DNA of 63,125 nt, filler included, from Stramenopiles sp. TOSAG23-6 (GCA_900128565.1; 26 parts of 26 records of this genome joined end to end with filler, not necessarily neighbours in it); one strand, 5' to 3'. Positions 38,819 through 55,865 are shown, numbered from the whole stretch's first letter. A program made the numbers and translations. The notes: a model not told the origin generated them from the letters alone.

Positions 38819-39047
38819 GTATGTTTTATTTTTTTTTTTACAGAAAAATCGAATTTATTTTTTTTTTCGTACGAAATTTTGTACCTAACAAATTTTTTNN
38901 NNNNNNNNNNNNNNNNNNNNNNNNNNNNNNNNNNNNNNNNNNTTAATTAATTAANNNNNNNNNNNNNNNNNNNNNNNNNNNNNNNNNNNNNNNNNNNNAA
39001 AATTTCGTACGAAAAAAAAATCGAATTTGAAAAAAAATAAAACATAC

Positions 39048-39863
39048 ATATTCAATCCCTCCTAACTTATTCCATACTTTTGTCTGTTGACATTGTCGTA
39101 TTTCGTTATATTTTTTTTCATGCCACCACTCACAGCGTAGTCCATCAGATATTGCGTATCCATACTCATCATATAGAGGTACTGGGGTAGTCATGTCGAT
39201 TCGTGCTTTCAAAGGAAAATTATATAATTTTGTTGTGATAATATCTTCATTAATATATTTCGGGCGATAGAAATCATCAGATTTTGTGCCAGGATATATC
39301 CCTACTCGCAGGTGAACTTCCCCACTTCCAGTGCCATCCGTTAGTGACCACCAAGAATCTTTTACTTGAAGTCCACTTGAGCCTACTAAACTTTCAAGAG
39401 GAAGAACGACTCTACCTAATAGAATATCTTGTGATAGTAAGCCTCTATTATCAATTATCTCTACAGATAGAGCCCATTGATCTAAATAAAAAAGCCTATC
39501 ATCACGATTATGATTTTCTTCATGAGAATCATTCAACAATACGTGTACGGGTAAAGTCAACTCTGCGTCTATCATTGGATTACTTTTTCCAGCAGCAGCT
39601 TTGGAAGAAGTGACTGGCTTTGTATGATTCGTTGCACTTCCTATCTTCCTAAACGATGACTGCAAATCACCACTCTTATGCCGTGGCAAGGTTTTCTGTG
39701 GCGAAGGTGCGTCAAGTCGAATAAGTTGGACCATGGCAAATGGACCTCGTAGGACTGTACTGTTGTCTGAGGACACACGAAGGTTTCTCGCTTGAACGAC
39801 ATGCACTTCGATATAACTCGTAGATGTCTTGTCAAAACCACCAGAGCGTAGACGTTGCAGCAT
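39048..39863 (-). CDS. C2-domain protein, first exon
   Basis: IEVHVVQARNL, LSVEIID, LLGRVVLPL, WWSL...GEVHLRV, followed by YDEYGY. Confidence 0.75.
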
Positions 39864-40141
39864 TTTATACTCTTCTAATTAAAAATTGATGATCGGTATA
39901 TATAATCTTGTTATTATTATTACTGCATTTATAATTCAGAGTTCTTATTGGCTTTAGATAAATTCAATTTTCATCTTCAATTTAATATTGTATTTTATTT
40001 TACTCATTTCCGATTTGTTAGTTTTCGCGAGCAGGAACGACATCATCGTTTTTGATGTTTTTGATGAGCAATAATTTTAATTTTTTGACTTGTTTGTCCG
40101 GACTCCGTACCGTACTCTACGGCGTTTTAAACTTTTAGACG

Positions 40142-40480
40142 ATGAATACGATGGATACCATTGCATTTAAAAAAATATTGGAAAAATGCCAAATGAAGTG
40201 CAAAAAATGCTGGGTTTCCACTGCAACTGGCCCATGCAAAGCCTGTAAATGGTGCTGCAACAACGAGTTTTGTTGGCGGACGTTTCACTCTGACTATGTA
40301 GATCAGACTGAATATTCAGAACGTAATCCTTTTAATGTCATGTGTCATTGTGGACAACCTGCAACAGGCATTTGCAATAAATGCGTATTTTGTTGTAATA
40401 AGAAATACTGTGAAATATTCCATATAATACCTGAGGAAAATAATGGTAGATGTAACAACAAGAATTTAGCATACGTATAG
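40142..40480 (+). CDS. Small protein with two B-box-like Cys/His clusters
   Basis: CKKC..ATGPCKAC..CCN...C...FH and CHC..ATGICNKC..CCN...C..FH. Confidence 0.65.
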   Translation: MNTMDTIAFKKILEKCQMKCKKCWVSTATGPCKACKWCCNNEFCWRTFHSDYVDQTEYSERNPFNVMCHCGQPATGICNKCVFCCNKKYCEIFHIIPEENNGRCNNKNLAYV

Positions 40481-40601
40481 CAAATTATACATTTATGTAT
40501 TCTATTTCAAATTTATTCTTGTATTAAAAAACAATGCTTTTTTAAAAAATATAGATTTAAAATTATTTTAAAATGTTTTCTCTGTTCCATCCAATAAAAT
40601 C

Positions 40602-41270
40602 TTATTTATCTTTGTCTCCTATCTGAGATTTTTCAAGTTCAAGAAGAAATAAATTGAAATTTCGCTTTCTCACTTCATCATTTTTCTCGGGAAACATGAT
40701 ATATCCATCATAACCATATTTCATGTATATTGTGAAAAATATTTTTTAAAGAAAAAATGTTAGGTACGAATTTTCGTACAAAAAGAAAAAACACGATGAC
40801 AACGTATATATGCTCGTTCCAGTTGCCATGCTCCTTCTCTGTCACCGGAACAATTGCCTCCATATTTTTCACCTCGCTTTGGATCTGGACAAAATTTAGA
40901 GCAGCTTTTCGTCCGACCTTGAAAATTAATACAAACCATTTGAATCTTATTTAAGAAGTGTTTTGCTAAAGTTTCCTGTATTGTGAAAGAACAATGTTTT
41001 TAGTAAAAAAACGTGAGGTCTGATTTTTTTACGTAAAAATAAAATTCAAAAAAATTCAAAATATTTTGTTAGGTATGGAATTTCGTACTAAAAAAAAAAA
41101 AAAAAATTCAAATTCATGATGAAAACATATATTGATACTGTCGAAAGCTTTCCAAGAAGGATATATTCGAATGAAAATATTTTTTTGTGGTATAAATGCT
41201 TCTTCTAAATCAAATTGCTCAATCCTCGCCTTGTTAGTAAATTTCAATACAACTTTTTGCCAAGTCGAGT
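40602..41270 (-). CDS. Hypothetical protein (exons 41270-41131, 40975-40808, 40724-40602) with AT-AG and AT-AC introns
   Basis: Removing 41130-40976 and 40807-40725 gives one open frame: ...FDSIN|ETLAK...ERAY|MKYGYDGY...*. Confidence 0.65.
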
Positions 41271-41858
41271 GTGTATTTTGGAAAAATATTTCAAAAAAAA
41301 ATCGTTACGTACAAAATTTCGTACGANNNNNNNNNNNNNNNNNNNNNNNNNNNNNNNNNNNNNNNNNNNNTTAATTAATTAANNNNNNNNNNNNNNNNNN
41401 NNNNNNNNNNNNNNNNNNNNNNNNNNTTTTGGAAATACACATTTTTTTTTTTTTTTGAATTGTATCAAAAAAACTACTTACAATACATTGAATAGTACTA
41501 TAAAACCAACAAACGATAGAATTGAAATTTGTATCAAAAACTTCATATATTACACAACTACACAACGTATTCTTTGTAGTTATTTGTATATTGTTTTTCA
41601 TTTGTCTCAATGTTCAATTTGTTCTATTTTTTTTGTAAAAAAAATCGTTAGGTACAAAATTTCGTACGAAAAAAAACATTCAAAATTGAAACCTAACACA
41701 CATGACAGTCCATTAACCCTAATTGAACATTCTATATCAAAATATCAAAATTTCATACAAAAACAATTCAAATTTATTCTTGAAATTCATCTACATCACT
41801 TTTAGGTTTTTAGGTTTTTAGGTTTACATATAAAAAAAATTCAAATTTAAATTCAAAT

Positions 41859-43346
41859 TTATTCTTCAGGTTCAACTACTACATCACTTTTCAATTCACC
41901 ACAATCTGCAATCACAATGTCATTGACGGGGCAATCCTGAGCACCTTTTTCAGTATTTTCAATTTTACGAATAATATCCATACCTTGAATCACTTCACCA
42001 AACACAACATGTTTACCATCTAAATGAGGAGTAACGGTTGTTGTAATAAAGAATTGAGAACCATTTGTATTCGGTCCAGCATTCGCCATGGATAACAAAC
42101 CTGCTTTGGTATGTTTTACTCGAAAATTCTCATCAGCAAATTTAGCACCATAAATACTTTTACCACCAGTACCATTATGATTTGTGAAATCTCCTCCTTG
42201 ACACATAAAATCTTTAATGACGCGATGAAATTTGCTGCCCTTATAATGCAAATCATCACCTTTTTCGCCGGTACACAAAGCACGGAAATTCTCAGCTGTT
42301 TTTGGTGTTGTATCACCATATAGTTGAAATGTCACTCGGCCAAGTGATTCTCCTTCACTTTCCATATCAAAGTAGACCTTTGGTCCCGAGTGAATATCCG
42401 AAATTATTTGAGATTTTTCATTATACATACTCACTTTTTCAAATGCTCCGCCAAATTTCGCTTTTGCATTTTTCTTTTCTTGTAGAATTTTTTTCTTAAG
42501 AAGATCATACTCTTTACGAACAGCTTTATTTTGAGGATCTAATTTAGCGGCTTGTAAAAGATCAACTCTTGCTTGAGATAAAAGGCCAAATTTAGCTCTT
42601 GCGCTTCCTCTTCTATATAAAGCCTTGATATTGTTTTCTTCCCCCGTCATGGTCAAAACTTCAGTTGCCTTTGCAACTGCTTTTCCGTATTCTTTTTGTT
42701 TTAAGAGTGCAGCTGCAGCATTCAAACGACACGAGACACATAAATTGTGAACCTCCTTCTCAGACGCAGATGGGTCGCTTTCCGTCTGAAATGTTTCTGG
42801 ACCTTTGCCAAGAAGATCAGATACCAATTCAAGTGCTGCGTCCCACTGTTGAGTTGCTTGTAAATAATTTTTCATTTTAAAAGAATCGTTACCAGCAGTT
42901 TTCTTTTTACTAGCGGCAACAATTTTTTCACTTGTTGACATTTCCCACTTACTTTTCTCTTTAGGGGCAAAACCTAAAAGTTCACAGTCAAAGACGAGAG
43001 TAGCACCACCAGGAATCTTTGGAGGAGATCCATTCGCACCATAACCATAGTCACTTTTAATGACCAAATTAGCTCTCTCTCCAACCTTCATGCTTGCGAA
43101 ACCAAGATCCCATCCTTTAATTACACGACCTTGACCGAGTTGAAACTTAAAAGGATCATTTCTGTCACGAGATGAATCGAACTTGGAGCCATCTGACTCT
43201 AACGTACCTGTATAATGAGCAGTCACTTCGTCACCAGCTGGAGGAGATTCTCCAGTACCCTCGACCAAAACTTGTTTAATAACACCACCATCTCCACTGA
43301 TATCGACTTCACGGAGAACTGGAAGAGTTTCGTTTGATGTACTCAT
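41859..43346 (-). CDS. Dual-family immunophilin: FKBP - TPR - cyclophilin (FCBP type), complete and intronless
   Basis: FKBP ([31 protein letters not shown]), TPRs (KALYRRGSA) and cyclophilin ([40 protein letters not shown]). Confidence 0.96.
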
Positions 43347-43456
43347 AGTATTGTATATTTGTTATTGTATATTGCGTATTCTTTGTTATCCTTTAATTAG
43401 TGTTTGACAAAATTACTGGCGTCAAAATTACTCATATATGCTCAGTACCAAAATCG

Positions 43457-46275: not shown

Positions 46276-48599
46276 CGGGGCAATTAGTGGGTGAAGCATC
46301 ATCTGATAGGACAACTTCATCTTTTGCTGAAGGGGGTTGGGGGAAAGAATTTATTAAATTAAGAAATGATTTAGCAACGACAGAATACGTTGACTTGAGT
46401 TTAGAACAAAGAGTTTTTATTGTAGAGATATTATCAACTTTTATTACTGAAAGTGGTGTGATGCGAGCATATTTAAGAAATTCACTCGAGCAAAGTGTGA
46501 AACTAGCCGCTCGAAAGCGAAAAGAATATTCAACAATATTAAAAATTGCTGCAGATTCAAAGAAAAAAAATTATGCGGACCAAAAGCTACATCGTCAACA
46601 AATGATTCAAAATGTGAAGGAAAATGATACACAATTAATTGCTGAAGCGAAATGTAACAATTTATCTCAACAAGAAAATAGTGCCAGTAAAGATTCAATG
46701 ATTGATACTACTAAAATGTGTGGCAAAGCTGAACGTGGAAGCAGTACATGTAGTTTTGGCAGCACTAGTAGCGATTATCATAAATCATTCAATGTGTCTC
46801 TTAGTGCTATTCAAATCGAAGCCAAAGCAGAGCTTGATGCGAGGTATAATATTCTCCAGGAGTATGTCGGTTGTTTACGTCGTACTCCAATTGGTTGCGA
46901 TAGAGATTTTAGANNNNNNNNNNNNNNNNNNNNNNNNNNNNNNNNGATTTTAGAGAATACTGGTTGCTTGGTGGTGACATAAGTCGCATAGTGGTGAAGA
47001 TATTACCTAAAAAATGCCGACCACCTTTAATACTGAATGAGTTTGTACGTTTTCATCATGTATTTCAATTTTTTTTTTTGTACCAAATTTTATAATTAAC
47101 AAAAAAAATGAAATTTGACATATCTTTTACTACATATGGCGAAGAAGTTAGAAAACGCCCAGGTCGTAAAAAGAGAGCTAAAAAAATTTCAATTGTAAAA
47201 AAGGAAAAGAAAGTGTCTGATACAAACAATAAAAAAAAAGTGAATAGCGATAGTGATGATGATGATGATGGGGAGACAGAAAGTGATGACGATATGGATA
47301 GTGATCCTGATAATGGTAGCGACAGTGAACACCAAGTAGATGAGCCGGTGTTGAGTAACTATCTTACAATTATGGCTGAACGTGAAGCGAACCCTCTGCC
47401 GTCTCCCAAAGCCCCCCCTGGTCCAATGAGTATCGATCCTATCCGCTGGATTTCAATTGAAACTGAGAAAGAATTTGATGATCTTATCGAATCTTTACGA
47501 TACAAAAAAGAATTTAAAAAAAAACAATTCTGAAGTATTGAATAAACAGAAAAATGTTGGAAATCTCAAAGAAACGAAGAAGAATCGAAGAAAAACTTGC
47601 AAGAAACGTAAATCATATCCAAAAGAATATTTATCATATGCAACGCAATTATTAACTGTATGTGGTCACAGTCTTGTTTCAAAATTACTGGAAGCAAAGA
47701 ATAAAGATCCGTCGAAAACCTGGCAATTTCCCAGCGATAGTAACGAAAATAGTCCAAAAAAATTAGAAATACATTTAGGAGTGAATCGCCTTCGCGCAGA
47801 GTTATTAGATGTAGAAAATTCTTTACCAGCATCTCTTGTCGATGCGTATGGCCCAATTGGTACTCCTGAAGCTCGTCAATTGTGGCAGGATAAAGTTTGC
47901 TCGGCTAGTAATGTAGAAACATTTGTGGATCTAATTGTTGCTTTAGAATTGGGTGTACATAGAGACCAATTAAAAAGTTTTTGGAAGCCGTCTCGAAAAT
48001 TACAAAATATTTTTATTGATTTGAAGGAAGCTGAGGATTTTATCAATAAAAATGCCAAAGACAGAAGAAAATATACGAAGCAGATTCCAACCATTGAGGA
48101 TAGTACATCTGAAACAAAACCTAGTTTAAATTCTGATGTAAAATTGGATACAATAACGCCGAATGATGCAAAATCTAGTATTGTATTGTCCAAACTTGAA
48201 GAAGAAGCAAAAAAAATAACTGATGAAAAAACGTCTAAATTGTTAGAGACTCACACAATTTATGCTTCACTTTTCGAGGCTATTTGGAGTCTTGATGAAG
48301 CTATAACTTATCCTAAAGCAAAGGCTATTTCAAGATCTATTGGTACGAATGATCGACCTACTAGTTCATCTCGCACGACTTCGACGTCTAGTGCAACTGG
48401 AGATGATTATGGGTTTAGTTTTGAACATGTAGGCAATGCTGCTGATGATTACGAAGGAGCTTCTTGGGGTAATATTGAAGATATTGAACCTAGCTATATA
48501 ACAACTGACGGTATTTTGAATCATATAAAGAATGAAATGCGAAAAACAGAAGCTTGGCAAATTACCCAAAGATCATCAAGAGCGAAGGATACGACCATG
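46276..48599 (+). CDS. DDT/WHIM-WSD-type chromatin protein fragment (intron 47045-47137; apparent frameshift near 47500)
   Basis: EYVDLSLEQRVFIV (WHIM1-like), RRTPIGCDRDFR..YWLLGG (WSD-like), LRAELLDVENSLP and WQDKV. Confidence 0.65.
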
Positions 48600-48796
48600 N
48601 NNNNNNNNNNNNNNNNNNNNNNNNNNNNNNNNNNNNNNNNNNNTTAATTAATTAANNNNNNNNNNNNNNNNNNNNNNNNNNNNNNNNNNNNNNNNNNNNA
48701 CTCATGCGCGATATTCTCAGATATAAAAAATATCATTACAATAGTGAAAAGAATTCAAGCAATTGTTGTAGAAACACCACACAAACAACTTATTAA

Positions 48797-51021
48797 ATGT
48801 CTTTGCGTCGACTTGTCGAAACAACTCCATATTTTTACACTCTTGATGCAGCGTGGCAAGCAATAAGTACTGGAAAGTCGGCAAATATCTCTTCTTTTAT
48901 TTCGTCTGTTGTTTCAATATCTCCAAATGATCGAATTAATATGTGGCTCAATAAAAGTGGTGCGTATGATCTCGCCGCTGCGTCAAATGCTTCAGAGTCT
49001 CTATCGACTAACTCAGATTTTAGTGATTATTACAATCATCTTCGAACTTTGAGTATCAAACAGCTACCTCTGCAACACAGCAAACGTACACAGTTACACA
49101 AAACACAAAGCGAACATAACCCTACTAATGATGAAATTTCCACAGAGTCAAAAACAGACACTACCCCTAACCCTAATCCCCGAAAATTAGTANGAGAACA
49201 AATTGAACGAGATATCAGAAGAAGTGGTGTTACTGGAGGTCTTGTTGAAGTTCTCCGTCGTGTATTATTCGCCTACGTAGAACGTAATCAAGAAGTTGGT
49301 TATAGTCAAGGNATGAACTTTCTTGCTGCACAATGTCTTCATATAAAAATGTCAGAAGANCAAACATTTTGGGTTCTCTCTGGTTTGATGTACGTTTTCA
49401 TAACCCTAACCCTAATTTCCCTAATTTCATTTTTTTTTTTTTATAGTACATGTTGTACCTAACAATTTTTTGTAACAAAAGAAAAATTCACAATACATTG
49501 AAAAAATCCTAGGAATTGATTTTTTTGATAAGGATTTGACTGGTGTATTGGTAGACTGCGCAGCGTGCACACANATATTACATACTAAATATGANTGTTT
49601 ACTGTCAAAATTTGAGACGTCNCACATNCCNTTATCTGGGATTTTAAGTAATATGTTAATGTCTTGTCTGACAAATGTTGTACGTTTTAGTTTTTTTCAA
49701 TTTTTATCTAAATTTNTTTTTCGTACGAAATTTCGTACCTAACAAAAAAAATTAAAAAAAGAAAATATGTTTTCACAATATATGTTCCGACTGAATTATC
49801 AATTATATTTTGGGATTTTTGTTTTATTATTGATTTCAGAATTTTTTCTTTTTCAGTTGTGGTTACATTTTTTGATGCAATTTCTGGTATTATATATTCA
49901 CCTCTACGTTCATCTGATATACGTGACAAATTTTTAAGTGATGACAATTCAAAACATTCAAATTCAAAACATTCAAAACATTCAAATTCAAAACATTCAA
50001 AACATTCAAAACAGTCAAAACATTCAAAAACAATTGAAAATAACATTGTGGATGATGATTTTGTACTTGTAGCTGAAAAACCCATAGANGATGATCATGT
50101 ACTATCAACATCACCTGATATTATATTGTTTGAAATATTGAAAAAATGGCGTAATGTAAAAGTAAAAATTCACAAGTTGAACAACCCTAACCCTAATGAG
50201 AGTGAACACGTCCGACTTGATGAAATGAGCCATTCAATTATTCTTGAGTCTCTTCATCATATTCTCTCATATAAAGATGACAAAGGAAAATTAATGTTAT
50301 CTACTCATAGTATTCATCAATGTAGAGAAAAAGCTTTCATTGAAGTCAATTTATCAAAGAAAGTACACGAAATCAGTCAAAATAATTTTCAACTCTCTCA
50401 NTTAGGCTATTTGGAATCTATTCGCACAACNTTACTATCTGCTCGACGTGGTATCACTTCACCAATATTGTTTACAGCATCTTCATTTTATTTACAACAT
50501 CATTGTAATGTCATTGAAAGGATTAATAAGTTGTTACTATTAATTAAAGAGTTGCATCCTTTTATGAATCAACATGATACAAACACAAACAGGTTAGGTT
50601 TTTTTTGTATGTCCAATGTTGTAAATGATGTAAATGATGATGTAAATAATTCTACTGGTAGAAAAACAAAGTATGAGAATACATATAATACACCAATATG
50701 GAGTGGTGGCTGGAGTTGTTGTGAAGAAGAAAAGTTATTAAAAAATATTGCTTCAACAATATTTTCAGTGTCAACTATTTCATTTCACTCGGAACCATCA
50801 GAAATTCAAAATGTGGATCATCAAAAAAAAAATTCTGAAAATTTTAAATTATTGGAAGACATGAAAAAAGAATTGTTACAGATATCACAATTGATTGAAA
50901 AAGTCATAACAGCTGCACCAGTGTATAGATTATTAACAACTATTGAAGAAAAATTTACCAACACATCTGTAAACCCNAACCCTATAAAAACTAGTCGAAC
51001 TGTAAACCCTAACCCTATAAA
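48797..51021 (+). CDS. TBC-domain Rab-GAP (exons to 49389, 49499-49679, 49784 onward; partial)
   Basis: QIERDIRRS, LRRVLFAY..RNQEVGYSQGMNFLAA, TFWVL and PTELSIIFWDF; GT-AT introns 49390-49498 and 49680-49783. Confidence 0.88.
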
Positions 51022-51121: not shown

Positions 51122-54100
51122 ACTCATGCGCGATATTCTCAGATATAAAAAATATCATTACAATAGTGAAAAGAATTCAAGCAATTGTTGTAGAAACACC
51201 ACACAAACAACTTATTAAATGTCTTTGCGTCGACTTGTCGAAACAACTCCATATTTTTACACTCTTGATGCAGCGTGGCAAGCAATAAGTACTGGAAAGT
51301 CGGCAAATATCTCTTCTTTTATTTCGTCTGTTGTTTCAATATCTCCAAATGATCGAATTAATATGTGGCTCAATAAAAGTGGTGCGTATGATCTCGCCGC
51401 TGCGTCAAATGCTTCAGAGTCTCTATCGACTAACTCAGATTTTAGTGATTATTACAATCATCTTCGAACTTTGAGTATCAAACAGCTACCTCTGCAACAC
51501 AGCAAACGTACACAGTTACACAAAACACAAAGCGAACATAACCCTACTAATGATGAAATTTCCACAGAGTCAAAAACAGACACTACCCCTAACCCTAATC
51601 CCCGAAAATTAGTANGAGAACAAATTGAACGAGATATCAGAAGAAGTGGTGTTACTGGAGGTCTTGTTGAAGTTCTCCGTCGTGTATTATTCGCCTACGT
51701 AGAACGTAATCAAGAAGTTGGTTATAGTCAAGGNATGAACTTTCTTGCTGCACAATGTCTTCATATAAAAATGTCAGAAGANCAAACATTTTGGGTTCTC
51801 TCTGGTTTGATGTACGTTTTCATAACCCTAACCCTAATTTCCCTAATTTCATTTTTTTTTTTTTATAGTACATGTTGTACCTAACAATTTTTTGTAACAA
51901 AAGAAAAATTCACAATACATTGAAAAAATCCTAGGAATTGATTTTTTTGATAAGGATTTGACTGGTGTATTGGTAGACTGCGCAGCGTGCACACANATAT
52001 TACATACTAAATATGANTGTTTACTGTCAAAATTTGAGACGTCNCACATNCCNTTATCTGGGATTTTAAGTAATATGTTAATGTCTTGTCTGACAAATGT
52101 TGTACGTTTTAGTTTTTTTCAATTTTTATCTAAATTTNTTTTTCGTACGAAATTTCGTACCTAACAAAAAAAATTAAAAAAAGAAAATATGTTTTCACAA
52201 TATATGTTCCGACTGAATTATCAATTATATTTTGGGATTTTTGTTTTATTATTGATTTCAGAATTTTTTCTTTTTCAGTTGTGGTTACATTTTTTGATGC
52301 AATTTCTGGTATTATATATTCACCTCTACGTTCATCTGATATACGTGACAAATTTTTAAGTGATGACAATTCAAAACATTCAAATTCAAAACATTCAAAA
52401 CATTCAAATTCAAAACATTCAAAACATTCAAAACAGTCAAAACATTCAAAAACAATTGAAAATAACATTGTGGATGATGATTTTGTACTTGTAGCTGAAA
52501 AACCCATAGANGATGATCATGTACTATCAACATCACCTGATATTATATTGTTTGAAATATTGAAAAAATGGCGTAATGTAAAAGTAAAAATTCACAAGTT
52601 GAACAACCCTAACCCTAATGAGAGTGAACACGTCCGACTTGATGAAATGAGCCATTCAATTATTCTTGAGTCTCTTCATCATATTCTCTCATATAAAGAT
52701 GACAAAGGAAAATTAATGTTATCTACTCATAGTATTCATCAATGTAGAGAAAAAGCTTTCATTGAAGTCAATTTATCAAAGAAAGTACACGAAATCAGTC
52801 AAAATAATTTTCAACTCTCTCANTTAGGCTATTTGGAATCTATTCGCACAACNTTACTATCTGCTCGACGTGGTATCACTTCACCAATATTGTTTACAGC
52901 ATCTTCATTTTATTTACAACATCATTGTAATGTCATTGAAAGGATTAATAAGTTGTTACTATTAATTAAAGAGTTGCATCCTTTTATGAATCAACATGAT
53001 ACAAACACAAACAGGTTAGGTTTTTTTTGTATGTCCAATGTTGTAAATGATGTAAATGATGATGTAAATAATTCTACTGGTAGAAAAACAAAGTATGAGA
53101 ATACATATAATACACCAATATGGAGTGGTGGCTGGAGTTGTTGTGAAGAAGAAAAGTTATTAAAAAATATTGCTTCAACAATATTTTCAGTGTCAACTAT
53201 TTCATTTCACTCGGAACCATCAGAAATTCAAAATGTGGATCATCAAAAAAAAAATTCTGAAAATTTTAAATTATTGGAAGACATGAAAAAAGAATTGTTA
53301 CAGATATCACAATTGATTGAAAAAGTCATAACAGCTGCACCAGTGTATAGATTATTAACAACTATTGAAGAAAAATTTACCAACACATCTGTAAACCCNA
53401 ACCCTATAAAAACTAGTCGAACTGTAAACCCTAACCCTATAAANNNNNNNNNNNNNNNNNNNNNNNNNNNNNNNNNNNNNNNNNNNNTTAATTAATTAAN
53501 NNNNNNNNNNNNNNNNNNNNNNNNNNNNNNNNNNNNNNNNNNNACTCATGCGCGATATTCTCAGATATAAAAAATATCATTACAATAGTGAAAAGAATTC
53601 AAGCAATTGTTGTAGAAACACCACACAAACAACTTATTAAATGTCTTTGCGTCGACTTGTCGAAACAACTCCATATTTTTACACTCTTGATGCAGCGTGG
53701 CAAGCAATAAGTACTGGAAAGTCGGCAAATATCTCTTCTTTTATTTCGTCTGTTGTTTCAATATCTCCAAATGATCGAATTAATATGTGGCTCAATAAAA
53801 GTGGTGCGTATGATCTCGCCGCTGCGTCAAATGCTTCAGAGTCTCTATCGACTAACTCAGATTTTAGTGATTATTACAATCATCTTCGAACTTTGAGTAT
53901 CAAACAGCTACCTCTGCAACACAGCAAACGTACACAGTTACACAAAACACAAAGCGAACATAACCCTACTAATGATGAAATTTCCACAGAGTCAAAAACA
54001 GACACTACCCCTAACCCTAATCCCCGAAAATTAGTANGAGAACAAATTGAACGAGATATCAGAAGAAGTGGTGTTACTGGAGGTCTTGTTGAAGTTCTCC

Positions 54101-55865
54101 GTCGTGTATTATTCGCCTACGTAGAACGTAATCAAGAAGTTGGTTATAGTCAAGGNATGAACTTTCTTGCTGCACAATGTCTTCATATAAAAATGTCAGA
54201 AGANCAAACATTTTGGGTTCTCTCTGGTTTGATGTACGTTTTCATAACCCTAACCCTAATTTCCCTAATTTCATTTTTTTTTTTTTATAGTACATGTTGT
54301 ACCTAACAATTTTTTGTAACAAAAGAAAAATTCACAATACATTGAAAAAATCCTAGGAATTGATTTTTTTGATAAGGATTTGACTGGTGTATTGGTAGAC
54401 TGCGCAGCGTGCACACANATATTACATACTAAATATGANTGTTTACTGTCAAAATTTGAGACGTCNCACATNCCNTTATCTGGGATTTTAAGTAATATGT
54501 TAATGTCTTGTCTGACAAATGTTGTACGTTTTAGTTTTTTTCAATTTTTATCTAAATTTNTTTTTCGTACGAAATTTCGTACCTAACAAAAAAAATTAAA
54601 AAAAGAAAATATGTTTTCACAATATATGTTCCGACTGAATTATCAATTATATTTTGGGATTTTTGTTTTATTATTGATTTCAGAATTTTTTCTTTTTCAG
54701 TTGTGGTTACATTTTTTGATGCAATTTCTGGTATTATATATTCACCTCTACGTTCATCTGATATACGTGACAAATTTTTAAGTGATGACAATTCAAAACA
54801 TTCAAATTCAAAACATTCAAAACATTCAAATTCAAAACATTCAAAACATTCAAAACAGTCAAAACATTCAAAAACAATTGAAAATAACATTGTGGATGAT
54901 GATTTTGTACTTGTAGCTGAAAAACCCATAGANGATGATCATGTACTATCAACATCACCTGATATTATATTGTTTGAAATATTGAAAAAATGGCGTAATG
55001 TAAAAGTAAAAATTCACAAGTTGAACAACCCTAACCCTAATGAGAGTGAACACGTCCGACTTGATGAAATGAGCCATTCAATTATTCTTGAGTCTCTTCA
55101 TCATATTCTCTCATATAAAGATGACAAAGGAAAATTAATGTTATCTACTCATAGTATTCATCAATGTAGAGAAAAAGCTTTCATTGAAGTCAATTTATCA
55201 AAGAAAGTACACGAAATCAGTCAAAATAATTTTCAACTCTCTCANTTAGGCTATTTGGAATCTATTCGCACAACNTTACTATCTGCTCGACGTGGTATCA
55301 CTTCACCAATATTGTTTACAGCATCTTCATTTTATTTACAACATCATTGTAATGTCATTGAAAGGATTAATAAGTTGTTACTATTAATTAAAGAGTTGCA
55401 TCCTTTTATGAATCAACATGATACAAACACAAACAGGTTAGGTTTTTTTTGTATGTCCAATGTTGTAAATGATGTAAATGATGATGTAAATAATTCTACT
55501 GGTAGAAAAACAAAGTATGAGAATACATATAATACACCAATATGGAGTGGTGGCTGGAGTTGTTGTGAAGAAGAAAAGTTATTAAAAAATATTGCTTCAA
55601 CAATATTTTCAGTGTCAACTATTTCATTTCACTCGGAACCATCAGAAATTCAAAATGTGGATCATCAAAAAAAAAATTCTGAAAATTTTAAATTATTGGA
55701 AGACATGAAAAAAGAATTGTTACAGATATCACAATTGATTGAAAAAGTCATAACAGCTGCACCAGTGTATAGATTATTAACAACTATTGAAGAAAAATTT
55801 ACCAACACATCTGTAAACCCNAACCCTATAAAAACTAGTCGAACTGTAAACCCTAACCCTATAAA
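51122..55865 (+). repeat. Two redundant copies of the TBC contig (51122-53443, 53544-55865)
   Basis: Same length, sequence and n positions as 48700-51021. Confidence 0.95.

Follow-up and report, generated by a model that had tools for sequence, protein, structure and literature searches.

Two AT-start introns of an introner-like family are precisely removed from the polyA RNA of a PI-PLC-like stramenopile gene

Two introns of a PI-PLC-like gene in a DNA stretch from Stramenopiles sp. TOSAG23-6 (GCA_900128565.1) begin with AT, and we confirm that both are genuine and precisely cut from polyA RNA. The stretch of 63,125 nucleotides (nt), in the following called the window, consists of 26 contigs of ~2.32-2.34 kb, lined up by length and joined by N44-TTAATTAATTAA-N44 linkers (e.g., 41327-41426), so that adjacent "loci" are not physically linked; the gene in question lies on the contig 38999-41326. 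Its two AT-start introns belong to an abundant family of similar introns that mostly end in AT, and the family-wide RT-AN rule that they expose is the point of high interest. The explanation that we favor, and consider probable, is that they are introner copies removed by a U2-type spliceosome that requires only T(+2) and A(-2) at the intron termini. The GC content of the window is ~0.22-0.36. By the database label of a public protein that matches a frame of the window, the host organism, which we treat as an AT-rich marine stramenopile, is of MAST-3 type.

The donor of intron 1 (41130-41121) reads ATATGTTTTC (ATATGT...) after an exon ending in ...GTATCAAT, and its 3' end ...CACAATACAG (ACAG) at 40976 is followed by GAAACT, with no slide of the junction possible. 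The donor of intron 2 (40807-40798) reads ATACGTTGTC (ATACGT...) after ...GAGCATAT, and its 3' end ...CACAATATAC (ATAC) at 40725 is followed by ATGAAA. These are the ends given in a preliminary description made from the DNA sequence. For intron 2, the AT-AC assignment made there stands in one of three equivalent registers (40807-40725, AT..AC), the other two reading TA..CA (40806-40724) and AC..AT (40805-40723). As that description also had it, both introns carry the family hairpin and CTAAC, with boxes at 41088-41068 and 40779-40759, and removal of both joins three phase-0 open stretches into one frame of 142 codons with a stop at 40604-40602. The family box is GTACGAAATTCCATAC-CTAAC in intron 1 and GTACGAAAATTCGTAC-CTAAC in intron 2, and this CTAAC is the sole one in each intron; intron 1 additionally has TACTAAA ~24 nt from its AG acceptor.

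For the contig of this gene, the only one covered by RNA evidence, 15 sequencing runs are listed. Of these, 5 are RNA, and we mapped three of them together with a DNA metagenome. In the polyA RNA run X7, a contig of 151 nt (record 20, depth 2) directly joins 40893-40975 to 41131-41197, which is exactly the removal of intron 1 and places the latter part of exon A in RNA. A second contig of 151 nt from the same run (record 19, depth 2, 0 differences) directly joins 40663-40722, within exon C, to 40806-40895; this joint drops 83 nt and corresponds to intron 2 slid along its 2-nt AT repeat. In the DNA run X3, which comes from another sample and study, a 565-nt contig (record 7) spans 40539-41080 in unspliced form and with 0 differences, while 41121-41297 is contained in record 8. 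Neither donor has a variant listed, so that there is no GT at these sites and A stands at +1. Taken together, X3 and X7 show that the introns are in the DNA with A(+1) and absent from polyA RNA. The preliminary description had pointed to cDNA junctions as a check and had considered intron retention, a non-expressed (pseudo)gene, and GT in the raw reads; we find that polyA RNA joins the exons at both introns, that the gene is expressed and spliced with an open frame and aligning homologues, and that independent DNA reads AT at both donors. The RNA runs X6 and X11 contain no joint at either intron, and one piece from X6 (41121-41259) extends 10 nt into intron 1 and could be pre-mRNA or DNA.

The junctions are also fixed independently of RNA because distant homologues align across them. 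The three host exons alone had no match in Pfam, and a word-based search aimed at longer proteins that include exon B gave no match. With the 56 residues of exon B as query, an exhaustive HMMER search retrieved 5 proteins at E<=1e-3 (best 2e-8), and P0241, P0242, P0243, and P0245 align with the virtually spliced product over both junctions; P0244 was dropped as a homologue, its match being 16 Cys-rich residues only. Junction 2 (QLERAY^MKYGYDGY; ^ marks splice junctions throughout) has a gap in 0/4 homologues (e.g., QLEAAY-MEFGYDGY), and junction 1 (AFDSIN^ETLAKHF) is gap-free in 3/4. PI-PLC-X is over the Pfam cut-off in three of the four aligned homologues, while the PI-PLC-Y match, which spans the stretch of junction 1, is over the cut-off in P0241 only. 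These alignments identify the product of the three exons as the C-terminal portion of a PI-PLC-like protein, and the earlier view that the host protein is too poorly conserved to fix the junctions no longer holds.

Both introns are among the matches of a family profile, in agreement with their earlier assignment to the same family. This profile, built from seven copies and run with nhmmer over the 63 kb at E<0.005, gives 59 family matches (one triplicated contig counted three times), and the hairpin-box pattern has 21 exact matches in the window compared to 0 in 100 shuffles. The copies lie in tRNA synthetase, kinesin, EF-hand, eIF4E, KNTC1-like, and PI-PLC-like genes at ~1 per kb and represent most or all introns visible in the window. 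Their layout is GTAYGTTTT, then GTACGAAATTTTGTAC-CTAAC, and then a 3' box TTCACAATACAN; the full consensus can be written as exon ..AT^GTAYGTTTT(A/C).., T-rich, GTACGAAATTTTGTAC-CTAAC, T-rich, TT(C/T)(A/C)(C/A)AAT(A/G)(C/T)A-N^. In 20/23 copies, the distance between the nearest branch-like box and the acceptor is 33-47 nt; two copies have no pattern match, and intron 1 with its 93 nt is the outlier. When metagenome contigs were scanned for the 21-nt hairpin box, a single locus came up, too few for statistics; the unrelated metagenome contig L001 carries one more GT-AT copy with an ACAT repeat.

Where these introns begin and end was determined with the 24 copies that have both ends within a contig, each excised between its aligned first and last bases (both included), which restored an open frame on both sides in 22/24. 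The register is pinned by conservation in five copies (tRNA synthetase at its HIGH motif, the EF-hand loop with its junction EID^TDGDNSINFVEF, and three kinesin-14 introns) and by RNA plus homologues in introns 1 and 2 of the PI-PLC-like gene, while in fifteen copies it rests on open frames only, with at least ~30 codons per side. Together, the pinned copies are compatible with a single register only, so that the intron starts at the G/A of (G/A)TAYGT. In this register, the termini of the 22 framed copies are GT-AT in 17 cases and GT-AC, GT-AG, GT-AA, AT-AG, and AT-AC in one case each, with T(+2) and A(-2) constant in 22/22. The copy at 11449-11354 was set aside as ambiguous, having only 8-9 codons downstream, and the one at 47045-47135 is out of frame, has an ATG-initiated open reading frame (ORF) beginning within it, and is probably not an intron.

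Three different kinds of termini (GT-AT, GT-AC, and GT-AG) occur among the family introns of one kinesin-14 gene (9832-11180, plus strand), whose orthologues carry ankyrin repeats. Its virtually spliced product shows no junction gaps compared to orthologues of 61-81% identity. The first residue downstream of the GT-AC intron is the start of the match at Pfam Kinesin position 102, and for the GT-AG intron, among ends 10985-10988, only 10987 gives a stop-free product. No transcript-derived proteins identical to the kinesin exon were found, the best being orthologues of 81% and 77%. In the Glu/Gln-tRNA synthetase gene, the first residue downstream of the family intron is Pfam tRNA-synt_1c position 16.

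A(+1) is seen at 41130, at 40807, and in the truncated copy at 12300 among ~35 recognizable donors (an approximate hand count). The last of these, ATACGTTTTC on the minus strand, had been listed before as another AT-start donor; it is present after an open frame, its contig stops before an acceptor, and we regard it as a putative donor. Two other AT donor candidates, at 24175 (plus strand) and 5375 (minus strand), were inspected and rejected, and a loose regular expression for donors that returned 108 mostly spurious sites was dropped.

In the explanation that we favor, introns 1 and 2 would be spliceosomal introns of the PI-PLC-like gene and copies of an abundant, transposon-like "introner" family. 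Each copy has GTAYGTTTT as a strong U2-type donor, one arm of a small palindrome that leads into the branch box TTTGTAC-CTAAC with the other arm, a T-rich tract, and the 3' box. The donor and the 3' box, the latter 33-47 nt past the branch box, would fix the splice positions, and the last base, usually T, may be C, G, or A while the first base may be A. Introns 1 and 2 would be G-to-A(+1) variants of the 'CATCATG / TTCACAATAC' subfamily in which the last base has changed too, to G and C, respectively; we infer both this direction of mutation and, from the sequence signals, removal by the major (U2-type) spliceosome. The donors of introns 1 and 2, ATATGT and ATACGT, equal the family's GTATGT and GTACGT apart from A(+1) and are good U2-type donors in this sense, and positions +2 to +6 (TAYGT) as well as the T-rich tract are U2-like.

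As for the palindrome, 59 windows anchored on TAC+NTAAN (some of them chance matches) have at least 5/6 pairs in 32 cases. The 5' arm of the hairpin decays (A at position 1 in 16, G at position 4 in 12) with no clear compensation, and we therefore treat the hairpin as an inherited palindrome, not as a proven functional stem. The 3' arm plus CTAAC (TTTGTAC-CTAAC) is retained across copies, and we read this conserved motif as a putative extended branch box. The family as a whole may spread like a DNA element. In 16/23 copies, the upstream exon ends in AT just as the intron does, and a pattern of exon AT plus intron AT would fit an element that is removed together with a 2-bp duplication.

Several observations weigh against this explanation or its parts. 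The RNA support comes from one run, in the form of two contigs of 151 nt and depth 2, and contigs give no measure of efficiency. For the GT-AT majority class, the support comes from protein conservation and open frames only. The copies with A(+1) number only two, possibly three, which is too few for splicing efficiency or rules. A search of the whole window against Rfam at gathering thresholds gave 0 matches and thus no rRNA, small nuclear RNA (snRNA), or other RNA family. With regard to transposon origin, the inverted repeat is ~10 nt long and imperfect and thus weak evidence. Repeats of at least 2 nt were observed in 13 cases compared to a mean of 12.6 on random re-pairing of exons and introns, so that the splice-site consensus explains the AT^...AT^ pattern equally well; since the AT repeat is not separable from the consensus, the case for a transposon origin is one of copy number and similarity alone. 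Finally, some features of the introns are shared with the minor spliceosome: the first four donor bases (RTAT at +1 to +4) are common to the U12 consensus, CCT.AAC resembles a U12 motif, minor introns, too, typically have a strictly conserved donor and branch box, and a passage of PMC1557818 reports that the U12 machinery accepts AT-AN and GT-AT termini.

These shared features speak for removal by a minor (U12-like) spliceosome that has diverged, such that its U11/U6atac and U12 would recognize GTAYGTTTT and ACCTAAC and AT-AC, AT-AG, and GT-AT would be the usual relaxed termini of minor introns. We consider this unlikely. The donors ATATGT and ATACGT are not RTATCCTT, having GT and not CC at +5/+6, and a T-rich tract is present. 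Matches to RTATCCTT in the window are at chance level (5 compared to 3.8 expected) and none of them is at a family donor, and the U12 branch box TCCTTAAC has 0 matches in the window. The branch box of U12-type introns lies ~10-15 nt from the 3' splice site; in the family, it lies 33-47 nt away. In addition, a perfect U12-type donor motif, ATATCCTT, stands in exon A (41164-41157, minus strand), with the AT donor 27 nt downstream, and the mRNA contig still contains it. On sequence, then, it holds that introns 1 and 2 are not U12-type, as the preliminary description had concluded from donors and branch distance.

A mode of removal outside the spliceosome would be conceivable if the intron ends paired (exon AU plus GUAUGUUUU with AAAAUACAU) and were processed by an endonuclease and a ligase, as proposed for structured nonconventional introns of protists. 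The 5' end with the last two exon bases is indeed partly complementary to the 3' box, and termini other than GT-AG are tolerated in the family. However, this pairing is largely broken in introns 1 and 2, which are spliced all the same, and the conserved GTAYGT and CTAAC would not be needed by such a route. Single-intron folds are no more stable than shuffles in 7/8 introns (z-scores 0.23, -1.34, -1.15, -1.39, 0.02, -0.14, -5.34, and +1.90), and we judge this route to be highly improbable. Least probable of all seems to us that the joined RNA contigs did not arise from splicing, i.e., that they come from intron-less alleles or paralogues via DNA in an RNA library or are assembly artifacts. RNA libraries may contain DNA and the joints are seen in two contigs of depth 2 from one run, but the library is polyA-selected and both joints fall at the ends of family introns with the frame kept. 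The X3 DNA contigs listed carry the introns, and among the joints listed, none removes either of them; the variant 41173 G>A recurs in the RNA run X6 on the piece that enters intron 1.

The preliminary description had suggested that the interaction between G(+1) and G(-1) is lost. With 17/22 framed copies ending in T, there is clearly no requirement for G(-1); the contact itself may have been lost. Both A(+1) introns lack a terminal T, ending in G and C, for which the probability is 10/231 = 0.043 (a hand calculation with n=2), so that some dependence between first and last base is possible. A(+1)/C(-1) is the classical compensating pair. A bolder reading, which we regard as possible at best, is that the major spliceosome of this stramenopile lineage needs no G at either terminus and that G(+1)-G(-1) is replaced by a wobble-type pair. 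The 5' cut would then be made via GTAYGT-type pairing that tolerates A(+1), and the 3' cut via the conserved 12-nt box fixed 33-47 nt past the branch box, with only A(-2) fixed; G(+1)/U(-1) would be the norm and A(+1)/C(-1) its isosteric partner. Such a first-last pair would account for the lack of a terminal T in the A(+1) copies, and a GT-AT introner could then colonize genes at ~1 copy per kb.

Compared to known systems, the two introns are closest in their donors to the U2-type AT-AC ("type II") introns of animals (SCN4A/SCN5A), which likewise have a U2 donor with A(+1) and no U12 donor or branch box. One of the three registers of intron 2, all of which give the same mRNA, reads AT-AC; intron 1 ends in AG with no slide. 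In the animal introns, A(+1) pairs with C(-1), and such introns are exceptional, numbering 24 among 610,067 in five species according to a passage of PMC1557818. Here, A(+1) occurs in ~3/35 donors, AG is the end of one copy, and most of the GT relatives have AT there. With U12-type introns, the family shares the RT-AN terminal spectrum and the highly conserved donor and branch box, but its donor is RTAYGTTTT, its ACCTAAC lies 33-47 nt (93 in intron 1) from the acceptor, it has a T-rich tract, and it makes up most or all introns of the window and not <1%.

Among families of mobile introns, the introner-derived non-GT/AG introns of Fritillaria borealis, described in bioRxiv 10.1101/2025.08.15.670264 as processed by a U2-type spliceosome with the U12 system absent, are likewise high-copy transposon-like elements in genes that are spliced despite non-canonical ends. 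Their 5' end is itself non-GT and corresponds to the transposon terminal repeats, whereas here the yeast-like GTAYGT and CTAAC are kept and mainly the last base departs, the first base rarely. For Amoebophrya (Syndiniales), passages of PMC7789003 describe repeated intron families with direct repeats over the borders, inverted repeats near the ends, and borders that slide; there, the borders are highly variable, with no conserved donor and U1 snRNA not found, in contrast to the single register and conserved signals seen here. The introners of Micromonas and Aureococcus, too, are near-identical introns at unrelated positions in unrelated genes, but they use GT-AG (a passage of PMC7789003), while AT is the standard acceptor dinucleotide of the present family. 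Nonconventional introns are also reported for Euglena (PMC12501133); the definition of such introns of the Euglena/Amoebophrya type by structure does not apply here, where GTAYGT and CTAAC are conserved and folds are ordinary in 7/8. The family differs from all compared systems in its canonical-looking donor and branch signals and its single register, with only the terminal bases relaxed. In the literature searched, neither this family nor GT-AT introns of marine stramenopiles are described, and the passages on introns, splicing, or canonical sites in two marine stramenopile genome papers (PMC5778133; bioRxiv 10.64898/2026.04.17.719054) mention no unusual introns.

GT-AG and the contact between first and last G are among the most conserved rules of eukaryotic gene expression. 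What we describe is apparently a natural system with textbook donor and branch site in which AT ends are usual, any last base occurs, and A(+1) variants are spliced, i.e., the splicing machinery of this organism appears unusually tolerant at both intron ends. Such a system would permit study of the role of terminal nucleotides in 3' splice-site choice across thousands of natural near-identical introns. Gene finders restricted to GT-AG will mis-model such genomes. One example may be an intron-less FKBP-TPR-cyclophilin frame of 500 codons (41859-43361, minus strand), whose next relatives are stramenopile proteins of ~55-70% identity: the public protein eukprot:GSMAST32... equals this frame minus four in-frame stretches (58 residues), and it looks as if the missing stretches were false introns forced by a GT-AG gene finder. 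Catalogues for uncultured marine grazers may therefore be systematically damaged.

Table 1. Positions of the AT-start introns, their host exons, and selected family introns in the window.
Feature	Position	Strand	Remarks
Intron 1, 155 nt, AT...AG, phase 0	40976..41130	-	ATATGTTTTCATCATG...TTCACAATACAG; RNA joins 40975 to 41131
Intron 2, 83 nt, AT...AC, phase 0	40725..40807	-	ATACGTTGTCATCGTG...TTCACAATATAC; RNA joins 40722 to 40806
Intron 1 hairpin (4/6 pairs) + CTAAC	41068..41088	-	GTACGAAATTCCATACCTAAC; 93 nt from acceptor
Intron 2 hairpin (6/6 pairs) + CTAAC	40759..40779	-	GTACGAAAATTCGTACCTAAC; 35 nt from acceptor
Third, putative AT-start donor	12220..12300	-	ATACGTTTTCATTTT...; contig end inside hairpin at 12220
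Upstream family intron, 3' part	41271..41326	-	Hairpin + GTAAC at 41324-41304; ends ...CCAAAATACAC at 41271
Exon A, PI-PLC Y-domain-like (...FIRIYPSWKAFDSIN)	41131..41270	-	Open frame; aligns with P0241, P0242, P0243, P0245
Exon B (ETLAKHFLNKIQMVCINFQGRT...QLERAY), 56 codons	40808..40975	-	Open frame; RNA records 19 + 20; homologues
Exon C (MKYGYDGYIMFPEKNDEV...), 40 codons + stop 40604-40602	40602..40724	-	Open frame; homologue alignment; RNA
Kinesin-14 family intron, GT...AT	9926..10033	+	DGFNVCI^FAYGQTGSGKT, gap-free compared to P0123, P0124, P0126, P0128
Kinesin-14 family intron, GT...AC	10114..10201	+	SLLG^VAPRS, gap-free compared to orthologues
Kinesin-14 family intron, GT...AG	10894..10987	+	KLVKN^KAAASVES matches orthologues
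Glu/Gln-tRNA synthetase family intron, GT...AT	4169..4261	+	TACAT direct repeat flanks; restores PEPSGYLH^IGHVKA

The family intron upstream of exon A has its 5' end beyond the contig edge, and its 3' junction is unpinned. Just past the 3' end of the PI-PLC-like gene, the opposite strand has a Cys-rich open frame of 113 codons (40139-40480, plus strand) with no Pfam match. The GT...AA family intron (36910-36793, minus strand) is in phase 0, with ~100 open codons on one side and 92 on the other, and a start codon may precede it (MLYKAEVMSMN^KTNN...).

At least 15 contig ends lie inside a family copy, often in the hairpin (e.g., 2445, 9676/9777, 12220, 24416, 34140, 36570, 38898, 41326, 58387, and 60808), which suggests that the family repeat breaks assembly. 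At 1354-2344 (plus strand), an exon of succinyl-CoA ligase alpha (CoA_binding) ends at a family donor at 1860 and is followed by two hairpin boxes, ...TTCACTAG, and then an ABC-transporter-like exon; this is probably a chimeric contig joined via the repeat. The three consecutive contigs 48700-51021, 51122-53443, and 53544-55865 are apparently one sequence in triplicate, with equal length, N positions, ORFs, and family matches. Telomere-like CCCTAA/TTAGGG repeats are found in or beside copies at 49390-49498 (plus strand), at 7553 (plus strand), and at ~160-230 of L001.
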